Origin: Candidatus Aenigmatarchaeota archaeon
GTDB taxonomy: Archaea > Aenigmatarchaeota > Aenigmatarchaeia > CG10238-14 > SCSR01
Direction: 5' to 3'
Length of the DNA stretch: 15,765 nt
NCBI GenBank assembly: GCA_039091335.1
Contig: JAWCME010000008.1
Location: forward strand, 1 to 15,765
Part shown: piece after piece, positions 1 to 3,000 of the stretch
Layout: the number at the start of each line of letters is the position of its first letter
How positions within the stretch are numbered: position 1 is the first letter of the stretch
Made by a program: the position numbers

Positions 1-3000
1 ACCAGACAAATATACAAAAACAGGGTCTTTGGCATCTGTTTTAAGCAAACCAATTTCTAAGTGTGCTATTTGATGACAAACAGGAATTAAAGGTTTATTA
101 AATTCTTTCGAAATTTTTTTAGCAAAATTTGCACCAACCAATAAACAAGGTGGTAAACCAGCACCAGCAGCATAAGCTACAATATCAATATCCTCCATTT
201 TCAAACCAACTGCCTTTAATGTGTGATTAAAGATAAACCCTATGTTTTTTTGATGAAAATCAGCTGCTTCATGTGGAATTATTCCTTTACCAAGAGATGG
301 TTTATAAACAGATTTTTCATCAGCCAACACATTTCCTTTTTCGTCAACAATCCCGATACCAAAAGTATTTCTGCAATTATCTTTGAGCAGTACTTTCGAT
401 ACCCAGACAAATTAATTTTTCACCCATAAATCTAAATTCTATAAATTTAAATAAACCTTTAGATGGTTTATGAAAGTCGAAGATCTTTCAAAATATGGTA
501 TACCTGAACATTTTATAAAAAAGTTCAGGGAGGATGGAATTTTAGAGCTTTACCCACCTCAAGAAGAAGTTGTTAGAAAAAAACTTTTTCAAGATAAAAA
601 CTTGGTGATATCACTTCCCACAGCCGGAGGCAAGACATTTATCGCGACCTTAGCCATGATAAACAAACTTTCTTCTTCAAAATCAAAGATAATTTACACA
701 GTTCCTTTGGTCGCTCTTGCCAACGAAAAATTTGAATATTTTAAAAAACTTTTTGAGGGAAGTTGGAAAATTGCTATTTCTGTTGGTGATTTGGACTCAA
801 GCGATCCTTGGCTTGCTGATTATGATGTGATAGTTTGTACGAATGAAAAACTTGATTCTTTGATAAGACATGGGGCACAATGGATTAGAGAGATCGGGTT
901 GATTGTTGTTGACGAAATTCATATTTTAAATGATCCTAATAGAGGGCCAACTCTTGAAATTTTGTTGACCCAACTTAGAGAAATCACCCCGAAAGCACAA
1001 ATTCTTGCTCTTTCAGCAACTATAAACAATGCTAAAGATTTAGCAGAATGGTTGAATGCATATTTGCTTGAAAGCGATTTCAGACCAGTAAAACTTTACG
1101 AAGGGGTTTATTATGATTCAAAAATTTTCTTTTACGACAAAAAAGGATATGAACTAAGCGATTTGGAACCAGAAGCAGCAATTGCTGAAAATGTTTTGCA
1201 ACTCAAAAAACAAGTTTTGTTTTTTGTTGCAACTAGAAGAACAGCAGAAAGCCTGGCAGAAAGTTTGGCTAAAACAACAAGGCTTTATTTGAAAAGAGAA
1301 GAAGAAAAAGAGCTTCAAAGTCTTTCTGAAGAGATTTTAAATATTTTAGAAATACCAACACAACAATGTAAGAAACTTGCAGCTTGTATTAAAAGTGGAG
1401 TAGCTTTTCATCATGCAGGTTTGTTGGGAAAACAGAAAAGGCTCATAGAAGAGAAATTTAGAGAAAGGTTAATCAAGATTATAGTGGCAACCCCCACCTT
1501 GGCCTTTGGTGTCAACCTTCCCGCTTTTAGAGTCATCATAAGGGACGCGAAAAGATATTATCCTGGTCTCGGAGCAGTGTATATTCCAGTTCTTGAGTAC
1601 AAACAATTTGTTGGGAGGGCAGGAAGACCAACTTACGATGATTTTGGTGAGTCCGTTTTGATAGCGAAAACAGAAGAAGATGCTCAAGATTTAGCAGATC
1701 ACTTCATCATGGGTCAGCCTGAAGATATTCAATCCAAACTTGCTCTGGAGCCAATTTTGAGAATGCATATCTTAGCTTTAATTGCGAGCGAATTTTGTAA
1801 ATCTGAAGAATCTTTAAAAAAATTCTTCTCAAAAACTTTTTATGCTTATCAATTTGGTGACACCTCTCTTTTGGAAGAAAAAATTAACAATATCTTAGAG
1901 CAACTCACAATCTGGAAATTCATCGTTTCTAAGAAAGGAAAAATCTCAGCAACAAGAGTGGGTAAGAGGGTTTCAGAACTTTACATAGATCCTTTAACTG
2001 CTCATCAATTCATAGAAGCTTTATCTAAAGCAGTTAAAAATAGGCTCTATCCTTTTGGTTTGTTACAACTAATTTCAAACACAATTGAGATGAGACCTTT
2101 GCTTTCTGTGAGAACAGGAGAATTTTCTGAGCTTGAGGATATTTTGGTAAAAAGGGAAAGTGAACTTTTACAAGAAATTCCAGATGAATCTGAAATCGAG
2201 TTTGATGATTTTTTAAGAAGTTTAAAAACAGCTTTGATGTTCGAGGCTTGGATAGAAGAAGCAACCGAAGACCAAATTTTAATGAGATTTAAGGTCGCCC
2301 CAGGAGAATTTTATAGTAGAAGAGAAATTGCCGATTGGCTTATTTATTCTTTACAAGAGATCGCCTTGTTGTTAGGATATAAAGAGTTTTTGAGATACAT
2401 AAGAAAGCTTAGAGTCAGACTCGAATATGGGGTAAAGGAAGAGTTGATTCCTTTAGTTAGGCTTAGACAAATTGGTAGGATTAGGGCAAGAAAACTTTTC
2501 AATTCTAGAATAAGAAATCTTGCTGATTTAAAGAAAGTTTCAATTGAAAAACTTTCTTCAATTGTTGGTGTAAAGATTGCAAAATCAATTAAAGAGCAAC
2601 TGGAAAAAAAGGAAGAAAATAAAAAGATTGAGAGACAAGTTACCTTGAAAAGATACTGAGTGGGGTTGCTGGGATTTGAACCCAGATTGCCAGCGTTCTC
2701 TTGAATACCCGAGGCTGGTGTCCTAACCAAGTTAGACGACAACCCCCCTAATAAGAATTAGTTCACTGTTTTATTTCTAAACTTATTTTGACTCTTGTTT
2801 GAGAATTTTTCAATTTTTCAATCAAGCTTTGCTTAAGCTCGCTAGCAGATTTATCCGAAAGAATGGCAATAGTCTTACCATCAATAAGAGAACCCTTCCT
2901 TATGACAATTTCTTCCTTGCTTGCAAGCCTAAGAGCAGGCGAGCCATAAGCAACAAAAACTTCTTCTTCCCCCTCCGCTTCAATTTTCACCTCAACCCTT

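Follow-up and report, generated by a model that had tools for sequence, protein, structure and literature searches.

A 16-nt insert in the coding sequence of kae1, located at 384-369 on the minus strand of the window (the analysed 15,765-nt stretch of contig C28, JAWCME010000008.1, from the assembly GCA_039091335.1 of a hot-spring Candidatus Aenigmatarchaeota archaeon, here called G000), is most probably an archaeal tRNA-type intron of bulge-helix-bulge (BHB) or bulge-helix-loop (BHL) form that would be removed from the mRNA. We put the probability of this reading, which is based on sequence analysis, at about 85%. The BHB/BHL-type intron proposed in the genome-wide survey's note is supported by the fold of the RNA, the exact repair of the reading frame, the sharing of the site by 25 genomes and covariation.

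Interrupted reading frame of kae1

The sequence and the reading frames confirmed that the insert at C28:369-384 brings a TAA into frame, as had been noted in the survey. The following features were assigned at the locus:

385..427, minus strand: kae1 exon 1 (ATG at 427-425, 13 further codons to 386, C385 as the first base of a split His codon)
369..384, minus strand: 16-nt mini-intron (starts with A, ends with AA; TAA at 379-377 in the exon-1 frame)
1..368, minus strand: window part of kae1 exon 2 (A368 T367 finish the His codon, then 122 codons; continues at C5:3-602)
470..2659, plus strand: hel308, the divergent neighbour (NF040935 Hel308, E 7e-169); its start and the kae1 ATG are 43 nt apart

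In the unspliced frame of exon 1, the 14 codons are followed by CAA AGA TAA, the first of these triplets including C385, which ends translation after 16 codons. The long open frame (1-366) is in register with exon 1 only if 384-369 are removed, whereby C385 and A368 T367 form CAT (His). Excision at the predicted cut sites restores both the frame and the His codon, and the earlier claim that these sites rejoin the start region to the called part of kae1 thus held. The exon-1 peptide could be aligned to the start of the protein in 27 uninterrupted relatives, and His occupies the junction position in all 27. The NCBIfam profile TIGR03722 (arch_KAE1) was matched by the window part at positions 10-130 and by the C5 part at 126-320, while positions 1-9 are missing from the called part of the gene. 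Since the unspliced message meets TAA after 16 codons and the called part lacks these profile positions, removal of the predicted intron is needed for full-length Kae1.

The survey's note had treated the gene as partial, cut by the contig end, which turned out to be a matter of assembly only. Contig C5 overlaps the window by 20 nt, its first bases being the last 20 of the minus strand, and then continues the gene for the 200 codons that remain, up to a stop; kae1 of G000 is therefore complete across C28 and C5 and, apart from the insert, intact over about 330 codons. It is followed on C5 by an RNA 2',3'-cyclic phosphodiesterase gene. The closeness of the site to the contig end (370 nt) might point to an assembly or sequencing artefact, but a Logan contig of a public run, which may be the source sample, is identical over 900 bases (1-900), and inserts at the same site occur in 24 other assemblies, so an artefact is extremely unlikely. 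Four public DNA sequencing runs, all of one study, were listed as containing the locus, and none of the runs listed is recorded as RNA, which says nothing about expression.

Predicted structure around the insert

Folding of the 410-350 segment gave a minimum free energy (MFE) of -23.5 kcal/mol (z -6.28), a stability reached by none of 200 shuffled sequences, and the MFE structure was the motif itself. The survey had also obtained the motif as MFE structure, with other values (z -3.47, 1 of 200 shuffles as stable), the stretch folded at that time being probably a different one. Likewise, the outer helix is present, but it measures 13 bp (403-391 with 367-355) and not the 11 bp given before. From 5' to 3' along the transcript, the elements of the structure are:

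391..403, minus strand: 5' strand of the outer helix, in exon-1 codons (pairs with 367-355, 13 bp including three G-U pairs)
387..390, minus strand: 5' strand of the central 4-bp helix, CUGC, in exon 1
375..386, minus strand: 12-nt loop with the predicted 5' splice site (between U386 C385 and A384), bulge-helix-loop form with no closed 5' bulge
371..374, minus strand: 3' strand of the central 4-bp helix, GCAG, inside the intron and present in the MFE fold
368..370, minus strand: AAA bulge of the predicted 3' splice site, between the central and outer helices (predicted cut between 369 and 368)
355..367, minus strand: 3' strand of the outer helix, in exon-2 codons

In the pre-mRNA, codons 9-13 of exon 1 would thus pair with exon-2 codons into the outer helix, and the final CUGC of exon 1 would pair with the GCAG of the intron, placing the 3' splice site in the AAA bulge and the 5' splice site, as its mirror, in the 12-nt loop. 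The closed 5' bulge of the canonical hBHBh' motif was absent in the G000 fold, and two inner pairs could be imposed only at a cost of 2.7 kcal/mol. The relaxed BHL form is described as accepted by broad-specificity enzymes (in sections of PMC5829648), and introns with real inner helices of 4-5 bp were found in the relatives G006, G043 and G066. The splicing endonuclease EndA is stated to cleave the bond after the second bulged base (in a passage of PMC12397907). Applied to G000, this rule sets the cuts between 385 and 384 and between 369 and 368, which are the exact limits of the insert. The same rule restored the His codon and the frame in 22 loci examined by script (that of G230 after correction by eye), and the same restoration was read by eye in three further loci (G261, G262 and G265).

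Occurrence in relatives and covariation

The inserts reported by the survey at the same site of G006 (18 nt) and G014 (16 nt) were borne out, the other 27 of 29 relatives' loci reading through. The junction was readable in 63 genomes of the family, 12 of which have the insert. A covariance-model search of the order found the site occupied in 14 of 118 genomes, the intron-type hits scoring 54-85 bits over 65-76 nt and the intronless ones at most 39 bits over 51-52 nt, and a pattern search of the class extended the occupancy to 25 of 371 genomes from 10 families. The latter search returned 29 matches in 28 genomes, of which four lay outside kae1 (G176, G122, G240 and contig 7 of G066) and were dropped as chance matches; the backwards control gave one match. 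No insert was found in 14 named archaeal genomes of other lineages, and a phylum-level model search added no intron-bearing genome outside the class sample. A short low-depth contig of a relative from another sample keeps an insert, with 10 differing letters and one gap over 347-420; one extra base in it would give an insert of 17 nt. At the DNA level, the putative intron is patchily distributed. A Kae1 tree (70 rows, 122 columns) was poorly resolved, with 36 of its 65 forks open. The intron label required 11 changes on it, at least three of these being forced by well-supported branches, and was not clustered (267 of 500 shuffles gave as low a number). The tree gives no order of intron gains and losses.

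The inserts are 12-30 nt long, represent all three phases and differ in their inner sequences. In 21 of 22 cases the insert contains a stop in the exon-1 frame, and in the remaining one the stop lies 22 nt beyond. The exon-1 peptides of the 22 intron-bearing genes are conserved and in frame with the start codon, and in each of the 11 loci whose sequence reaches far enough, the exon-2 frame runs for 310-317 codons and ends in a stop. The RNA structure is conserved as well. Across 22 sequences 94.4% of the cells are paired, compared with at most 44% when the partner strand is slid, and the covariation score of 0.282 (0.181 in shuffled alignments) was reached in none of 500 shuffles. The central helix is 98.9% paired, its second pair being UA in 14 sequences, CG in seven and UG in one. 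The outer helix is 93% paired, and both sides change in five of its 13 pairs, with compensatory states such as AU in ten and GC in six sequences, or CG in nine and UA in nine. The 3' bulge is AAA or AUA in all 22 introns of the relatives. The outer helix is partly dictated by the codons, because its positions are paired at 8.2 of 13 on average in intronless genes. Beside the bulge, a contiguous run of exon pairing sets the intron-bearing genes apart: it measures 9-13 bp in 10 of the 12, as against 0-3 bp in 58 intronless genes.

These data bear on two readings that do without splicing. The insert could be a scar at the DNA level, leaving kae1 a pseudogene or the source of an N-terminally truncated protein, and the early in-frame TAA and the GTG at 330, at which the longest start-to-stop ORF of the locus begins, would be compatible with this. 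However, kae1 is single-copy, with one match per family genome, and is otherwise intact; a protein started at GTG 330 would lack TIGR03722 positions 1-9, which hold the phosphate-binding loop; exon 1 is conserved as protein in the intron-bearing genes; and one exact site is shared by the 25 genomes, with compensatory changes that maintain an RNA structure. A scar is consequently quite improbable. The other reading is translational recoding, in which the ribosome would bypass the insert or shift frame over it. A short insert near the gene start combined with a strong local hairpin recalls known bypass sites, such as that of phage T4 gene 60. Yet the His codon is split across the insert, so it could be decoded neither by a hop nor by a shift; lengths of 12-30 nt in all three phases and with in-frame stops fit no single recoding rule; and the features that are conserved, the 4-bp helix and the 3-nt bulge, are those of an EndA substrate. 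We regard recoding as very improbable, even more so than a scar. Excision of 384-369 as a tRNA-type intron is thus the reading that we retain.

Predicted processing by EndA and RtcB

In line with the survey, no endonuclease gene was detected in the G000 bin, which is 87% complete: PF01974 had no match at E<=1, and tblastn with EndA of eight relatives gave nothing below E 0.1. In contrast, EndA was found in all 24 relatives searched, including G006 and G014, and RtcB is encoded in G000 at C25:37091-37729. The 13% of the genome that is missing from the assembly presumably encodes an EndA like that of the relatives. The relatives' enzyme is a single unit of about 180 aa and alpha4-like, with 5x89 and 1a79 as its best PDB matches. 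The alpha4 type is described as strict for the canonical BHB, and alpha4 enzymes of DPANN with an extra loop, L3, are linked to more disrupted tRNA genes (both in sections of PMC5829648). Compared with 1a79, the EndA of the relatives has six residues more near the place of L3, and this insert may well be L3.

The window contains another candidate substrate of the same pathway, 2.3 kb from the kae1 intron:

2661..2746, minus strand: tRNA gene (Rfam RF00005, 54.4 bits) with a 12-nt intron at 2707-2696, position 37/38

This gene was missed by the ARAGORN search, and we read its anticodon as CGG. Its intron folds in the same mini style as that of kae1, with a central helix, a 3' bulge and an AA end. 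The organism needs a splicing pathway because of this 12-nt mini-intron.

For the kae1 pre-mRNA we infer the following steps. On each side, EndA would cleave the bond that follows the second base, generating a 2',3'-cyclic phosphate and a 5'-OH, and RtcB would ligate the exons, joining C385 to A368 T367 in the His codon. Splicing would in this way unite the stretch from the start codon through codon 14, to which the conserved phosphate-binding loop belongs, with the rest of Kae1. Removal from the RNA by an activity other than EndA and RtcB, that is, by another nuclease and ligase or by self-cleavage, would agree with the failure to find EndA in the bin and with the relaxed motif of G000. Against it stand the presence of EndA in 24 of 24 relatives and of RtcB in G000 and a geometry equal to that of tRNA introns, including the one within the window; in addition, at 16 nt the insert is shorter than any known ribozyme. 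Such an activity is about as improbable as a DNA-level scar, and processing by EndA and RtcB is the route that we favour.

Homing endonuclease-like genes upstream of kae1

In five relatives (G136, G147, G050, G063 and G261) a free-standing gene, HEG-A, lies directly upstream of the intron-bearing kae1, and these five are all of the close HEG-A homologues found in 371 genomes. Its products of 330-460 aa have two LAGLIDADG-like motifs, with G172/D177 and G289/D294/G295 invariant in 10 sequences, flanked by an N-terminal helix-turn-helix-like extension and a C-terminal helical one. A structural model (pLDDT 88.7, pTM 0.87) matched the chains of I-DmoI in Foldseek (E 3.6e-6, TM 0.64-0.71 target-normalised, about 200 columns, probability 1.00). 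The Pfam scores are weak (PF05204 at 21.8 bits with a cut-off of 21.1; PF14528 in five of five at E<=1). The identification was made by fold comparison only, as a search of the PDB sequences with the HEG-A profile gave no meaningful match. Judged from the model, HEG-A is a LAGLIDADG homing endonuclease with an I-DmoI-like single-chain fold.

The adjacency of HEG-A and intron-bearing kae1 in five relatives suggests collaborative homing. No HEG-A homologue was found in the G000 genome, and upstream of its kae1 there is no room for a homing endonuclease gene because hel308 starts 43 nt from the ATG. The putative intron of G000 is best seen as an orphan, that is, one without a linked endonuclease gene.

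Two further observations were made in the relatives. In G201 a second ORF with a LAGLIDADG_3 hit is situated upstream of kae1, and partial look-alikes of it occur upstream of an intronless kae1 (G015) and of an intron-bearing one (G101). An insert in the aEF-2 gene of G060 has a helix-bulge fold, and no splice sites that rebuild the P-loop could be fixed in it.

Discussion

The closest parallel to the kae1 intron is the intron in the cbf5 pre-mRNA of Crenarchaeota (Desulfurococcales and Sulfolobales), likewise BHB-type and inside the coding sequence of an RNA-modification enzyme, which is removed by the tRNA splicing endonuclease and ligase (Watanabe 2002 and Yoshinari 2006, as cited in PMC10485636; Yokobori 2009, PMC2738675). 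In both cases the motif is relaxed, and presence and loss of the intron vary with the lineage. The kae1 intron differs in its host gene, in its lineage, which is DPANN-like (Pacearchaeota-like), in its much smaller size (12-30 nt), and in its site, which lies in the first 15 codons within those of the phosphate loop. The EndA of the kae1-intron lineage is alpha4-like, in contrast to (alpha-beta)2 for cbf5; a free-standing LAGLIDADG gene is linked to kae1 in some genomes; and splicing of kae1 is predicted from sequence. With the BHB/BHL introns of archaeal tRNAs and rRNAs it has in common the outer helix, the 4-bp central helix, the 3-nt bulges or loop and the predicted cut rule, and with the tRNA intron at 2707-2696 also the mini size. 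Unlike in those introns, both strands of the outer helix consist of codons, and a reading frame has to be preserved in the product.

Unconventional splicing of HAC1/XBP1, a stress-regulated eukaryotic process, depends on IRE1 and on tRNA ligase or RtcB. There, too, paired stem-loops mark the sites at which a protein endonuclease cleaves the mRNA, and a tRNA ligase joins the pieces with a change of frame. Nuclease and motif are different in kae1, for which no sign of regulation was seen. HAC1/XBP1 splicing is mentioned in a passage of PMC13149111. Among archaeal messages, the HVO_1309 mRNA of Haloferax volcanii is reported to be cut by EndA (in parts of PMC10485636 and PMC7714728) and is, as predicted for kae1, a substrate of the archaeal splicing endonuclease that is neither tRNA nor rRNA. 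The kae1 intron interrupts a codon.

The arrangement in the five relatives resembles that of F-CphI and the psbA group I intron of cyanophage S-PM2, a case of collaborative homing (Zeng 2009, as described in PMC6083498). In both, a free-standing endonuclease gene lies beside a gene with an ORF-less intron; in the relatives the intron would shield the allele and the enzyme would mobilise it. The kae1 case is distinguished by a protein-spliced BHB mini-intron in place of a ribozyme, by a LAGLIDADG enzyme in place of one of Endo VII type, and by its cellular, archaeal setting, and in G000 the intron stands alone, without an endonuclease gene. I-DmoI is encoded within an archaeal rRNA intron, whereas HEG-A lies outside the intron and has terminal extensions. 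We tentatively consider, at slightly less than even odds, a wider system in DPANN, in which tiny BHB introns, spliced by protein enzymes and lodged where the codons of essential genes are most conserved (kae1, and aEF-2 in relatives), would persist and spread by collaborative homing. The LAGLIDADG enzyme encoded upstream would cut the intronless allele at the site in question, and the intron, once spliced out of the message, would be both harmless and immunising. The copy in G000 might then be an orphan whose endonuclease gene was lost, and the intronless alleles that keep the exon helix might be the footprints that a precise loss of the intron left behind.

According to a 2023 review (PMC10485636), 'at least two' genes are known to be spliced by the archaeal enzyme, namely cbf5 and HVO_1309, and further ones are expected. 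A literature search, with subscription journals and bioRxiv supplements outside its coverage, turned up no report of an intron in kae1 or of BHB introns in DPANN mRNAs. The kae1 intron is very probably among the very few known tRNA-type introns in archaeal protein genes. As a predicted third host gene kae1 is well supported; the gene is universal and essential, the lineage belongs to a different superphylum, and the introns measure only 12-30 nt. On this reading, about 7% of the genomes of the class have a Kae1 from which gene callers remove the phosphate-binding N-terminus, which would affect annotation and marker-gene phylogenies. How BHB introns are gained and lost is a long-standing question, for which the linked LAGLIDADG genes, the patchy occurrence of the intron and the intronless 'footprint' alleles together provide a concrete and testable case. 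For the organisms themselves, which have minimal genomes, splicing of kae1 would make a tRNA-modification enzyme depend on the tRNA-splicing machinery for its synthesis.

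Two reading frames of kae1 would be joined by removal of 16 nucleotides

The window makes up contig C28 in a bin of 569,737 bp and 29 contigs (completeness 87.4%, G+C 30–35%), and the sequencing runs containing its DNA are labelled as hot-springs metagenome. It seems to come from a tiny DPANN archaeon. The genomes of the relatives measure 0.3–2.0 Mb, and the Kae1 piece encoded in the window is 53% identical to that of a 'Candidatus Pacearchaeota' MAG, its best taxon-named relative, and 64% identical to an 'uncultured archaeon' record. The kae1 gene and its neighbours are arranged as follows.

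Features at the kae1 locus
427–385, minus strand: exon 1, with ATG at 427–425 and 14 codons, the last ending at 386 and followed by C385
384–369, minus strand: insert of 16 nt
366–1, minus strand: long open frame (protein P0001) of 122 codons, in a phase different from that of exon 1
470–2659: hel308, the divergent neighbour
C5:899–1462: RNA 2′,3′-cyclic phosphodiesterase gene (TIGR02258), the next gene after kae1

Read through the insert, the frame of exon 1 runs CAA AGA TAA and stops. When 384–369 are omitted, C385 abuts A368 and T367, a CAT (His) codon is formed and both frames are joined. P0001 matches the archaeal Kae1 model (NCBIfam TIGR03722) at positions 10–130 of 323, so the called part is without the first nine profile positions, which exon 1 would supply. 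The gene had been described as partial by the genome-wide survey's note, but its remainder was found at the start of contig C5, which matches residues 133–331 of a relative's full Kae1 protein with 84% identity. C5 opens with the 20 bases at which the window's minus strand ends; 200 further codons and a stop follow, corresponding to TIGR03722 positions 126–320. The kae1 gene is complete with about 330 codons and is split by the assembly alone; the two contigs can be joined through these 20 identical bases within the gene (window 1–24 and C5:1–602, fetched as locus L146). A LigT-like gene lies likewise 3′ of kae1 in three relatives (G006, G014, and G066). In another, G080, the hel308 beside kae1 (L082:2–1495, minus strand) gave a weak Hint-domain match (PF13403, E 2.6e-5, below the cut-off), which may mark an intein.

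The insert folds as a relaxed bulge-helix-bulge motif

Folding of the 61-nt stretch 410–350 gave a minimum free energy (MFE) of −23.5 kcal/mol (z −6.28), the MFE fold makes up 71% of the ensemble, and none of 200 dinucleotide shuffles was equally stable.

Elements of the fold
403–391 (exon 1) with 367–355 (exon 2), minus strand: outer helix of 13 bp in the MFE fold
390–387 (CUGC, exon 1) with 374–371 (GCAG, intron), minus strand: central helix of 4 bp, stacked directly on the outer helix
370–368, minus strand: 3′-side bulge AAA of 3 nt in the MFE fold
386–375, minus strand: 5′-side loop of 12 nt in the MFE fold

This topology is that of a pre-tRNA's bulge-helix-bulge (BHB) motif in its relaxed bulge-helix-loop form; closing a 3-nt 5′ bulge by two forced inner A-U pairs costs 2.7 kcal/mol. 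In the crystal structure of the ARMAN-2 endonuclease, as described in PMC12397907, the first, second, and third bulged bases are A13, U14, and A15 and the cut falls between 14 and 15. Applied to the window, this rule places the cuts at U386 C385 | A384 and at A370 A369 | A368, bonds that coincide exactly with the limits required for the frame and the His codon. That the structural rule and the coding requirement independently mark the identical two bonds is the core of the case. On the evidence as a whole the insert is very probably spliced out of the kae1 mRNA, a reading to which we give a probability of about 85%.

Insert-bearing loci share the exon borders and the pairing

All insert-bearing loci have GCN C at the end of exon 1, AT ACN at the start of exon 2, and AAA or AUA as the 3′ bulge, and the inner sequence is freely variable. 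The start codon and the conserved peptide are retained in exon 1. Of the 22 loci examined, 21 had the stop of the exon 1 frame within the insert and the remaining one had it 22 nt past the insert, and the exon 2 frame ran 310–317 codons to its stop in all 11 loci of sufficient length. Some loci have a true inner helix and hence the canonical hBHBh′ form (AGCU/AGCU in G006; 5 bp in G043 and G066).

Insert lengths and number of loci
12 nt: 1 (G230, corrected by eye)
13 nt: 5
14 nt: 1
16 nt: 10
17 nt: 2
18 nt: 1
21 nt: 2
24 nt: 1
28 nt: 1
30 nt: 1

Seventeen named pairs were scored after 22 sequences had been aligned with MAFFT (A2). Standard pairs occupied 94.4% of the cells, compared with 33–44% when the 3′ partner was slid by 1–3 columns. 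The covariation score was 0.282 versus 0.181 ± 0.013 after shuffling (reached by 0 of 500) and both-side changes occurred at six pairs (2 of 500 shuffles); these counts are not probabilities, given the kinship of the sequences and a structure derived from one of them. The slid controls and the types of compensatory change are the stronger evidence. In the central helix, the second pair is U-A in 14, C-G in 7, and U-G in 1 sequence; its exon base occupies the synonymous third position of a Thr codon, and its intron base changes accordingly. Outer pairs alternate between A-U and G-C (10/6) and between C-G and U-A (9/9).

The exon helix is partly attributable to codon bias: intronless genes have on average 8.2 of the 13 outer-helix positions paired, because the Gly-Ile-Glu and Phe-Gly-Ile codons are complementary. 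However, pairing next to the bulge is specific to intron-bearing genes. Among the 12 such genes of the family, ten pair contiguously from the bulge over 9–13 bp, and the other two over 1 bp, with a strong inner helix present instead; in 58 intronless genes the run was only 0–3 bp. Outside these 58, a full exon helix was seen in two intronless kae1 genes, those of G180 (L118:1501–1552, minus strand) and of the Candidatus Pacearchaeota MAG (L120, about 150–230); from their sequences, we infer that such alleles may be footprints of precise intron loss.

The probable intron is patchily distributed

The P0001 query gave one match each in 40 of 41 related genomes. Among 30 fetched loci, 27 were uninterrupted across the conserved motif (Ala-His, then Thr-Phe/Leu-Gly), and three carried an insert at the identical place: the window's own genome and, as had been claimed before, G006 (18 nt) and G014 (16 nt). 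In the family (70 genomes, 65 with a kae1 match) the insert was found in 12 of 63 readable junctions, two matches that begin at contig ends being excluded. These twelve loci were used to build a covariance model (R1), which gave 14 intron-type matches across the 118 genomes of the order (54–85 bits, 65–76 nt), two of them added from other families (G117 and G101); the remaining kae1 matches reached at most 39 bits with 51–52 nt, so the two states split cleanly. On 151 evenly drawn genomes of the class R1 gave ten intron-type matches, eight outside the order, and on the phylum sample no further one. A degenerate pattern run on all 371 class genomes matched 29 times in 28 genomes (backwards control, 1). 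Four matches lay outside kae1 and were dropped; the other 25 were kae1 at this insert site, thus at least 25 of the 371 genomes, from ten families (f1, f4, f5, f10, f11, f16, f21, f24, f28, and f33), bear the insert. Fourteen named genomes from other archaeal lineages had no kae1 insert.

The presence is patchy, and both states occur within six genera. On the Kae1 tree, which is poorly resolved, the intron label is unclustered and needs 11 changes, at least three on well-supported branches. G043 and G066 belong to different genera; their 21-nt introns are near-identical, and the unusual flanking codons are the same in both.

Splicing enzymes and a second intron in the window

The catalytic domain of the tRNA splicing endonuclease EndA (PF01974) was detected in 24 of 24 relatives, G006 and G014 included. 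Its reported absence from the bin held: both the PF01974 search (E ≤ 1) and tblastn with the EndA of eight relatives gave no match there, which is weak evidence of absence as 13% of the genome is missing. The end of contig C25 encodes the ligase RtcB (profile 1–209 of 426). A tRNA gene of the window is itself interrupted.

Interrupted tRNA gene
2661–2746, minus strand: tRNA gene (Rfam RF00005, 54.4 bits), anticodon CGG (Pro) by our own reading
2707–2696, minus strand: intron of 12 nt at position 37/38, with a short central helix, a 3-nt 3′ bulge, and an AA end

This mini-intron and the kae1 intron are alike in build, and since the tRNA carries an intron, the organism needs a splicing pathway. 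ARAGORN misses this tRNA, thus tRNA counts for the bin are underestimates.

The relaxed 5′ site of the kae1 intron needs a tolerant enzyme. According to PMC5829648, relaxed motifs are cut only by enzymes with a 'specific loop', and several DPANN lineages with many disrupted tRNA genes have alpha4-type EndAs that carry an 'L3' loop. In the relatives, EndA forms one unit of about 180 residues and is most similar to the enzymes of M. kandleri (5x89) and M. jannaschii (1a79). Compared with 1a79 it has six additional residues between the catalytic Tyr and His regions, which we infer to be a putative L3.

A free-standing LAGLIDADG gene adjoins the intron-bearing kae1 in some relatives

The flanks of 22 intron-bearing kae1 loci were searched for homing-endonuclease genes. 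Homologous ORFs of 350–460 aa (42–52% identical; HEG-A) lie immediately upstream of kae1 and in its orientation in G136, G147, G050, and G063, and G171 has a 34-residue remnant at the corresponding place; none occurred at the intronless kae1 loci compared. Close homologues (≥44% identity) were found in five of all 371 class genomes, from three families, and all five, G261 included, adjoin an intron-bearing kae1.

HEG-A coordinates
L114:205–1479
L117:205–1461
L088:1186–2433, minus strand
L084:517–1479
L135:1483–2475, minus strand

HEG-A is weakly detected in Pfam and had no match among PDB sequences. Its AlphaFold model (ten sequences; pLDDT 88.7, pTM 0.87) matches both I-DmoI and PI-SceI at E about 1e-6 (TM 0.64–0.71 to I-DmoI), and each of its two LAGLIDADG motifs has invariant Gly and Asp residues. 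HEG-A is a free-standing double-motif LAGLIDADG family of predicted I-DmoI-like fold. The window's genome has no HEG-A homologue: its kae1 is flanked by hel308 43 nt upstream and by the phosphodiesterase gene downstream, and its intron stands alone, without an endonuclease gene.

An unrelated second ORF with a LAGLIDADG_3 match lies upstream of kae1 in G201 (L112:67–1491); partial look-alikes are found upstream of an intronless kae1 in G015 (L017, 2513–2965) and of an intron-bearing kae1 in G101 (L091, 1012–1164). Distant HEG-A paralogues (28–32% identity, LAGLIDADG_3 and HTH) lie immediately upstream of translation GTPase genes (L139 of G061, 860–3096, minus strand; L141 of G060, 1287–3156, minus strand; L140 of G065; L145 of G060). 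The P-loop codons of aEF-2 are split by an insert of about 30 nt in G060, and at least six short inserts in the first 600 nt seem to break the gene in G061; the aEF-2 of the window's genome (C26) is uninterrupted.

Relation to known systems

The kae1 intron is assigned here to the known class of BHB introns in archaeal protein genes. A 2023 review (PMC10485636) names cbf5 and HVO_1309 as the two archaeal genes spliced by EndA and anticipates others; Yokobori 2009 (PMC2738675) describes how the cbf5 intron was gained and lost. A full-text literature search returned no paper on an intron in kae1 or on BHB introns of DPANN mRNAs; the observation is real and, as far as that search reached, unpublished. 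In cyanophage S-PM2, an arrangement with a free-standing endonuclease gene was named collaborative homing (PMC6083498), and the arrangement of HEG-A and the kae1 intron in the relatives matches it. By this likeness HEG-A would be a putative endonuclease cutting the intronless kae1 site, and the link of a free-standing LAGLIDADG gene to the kae1 intron, if shown, would be novel.
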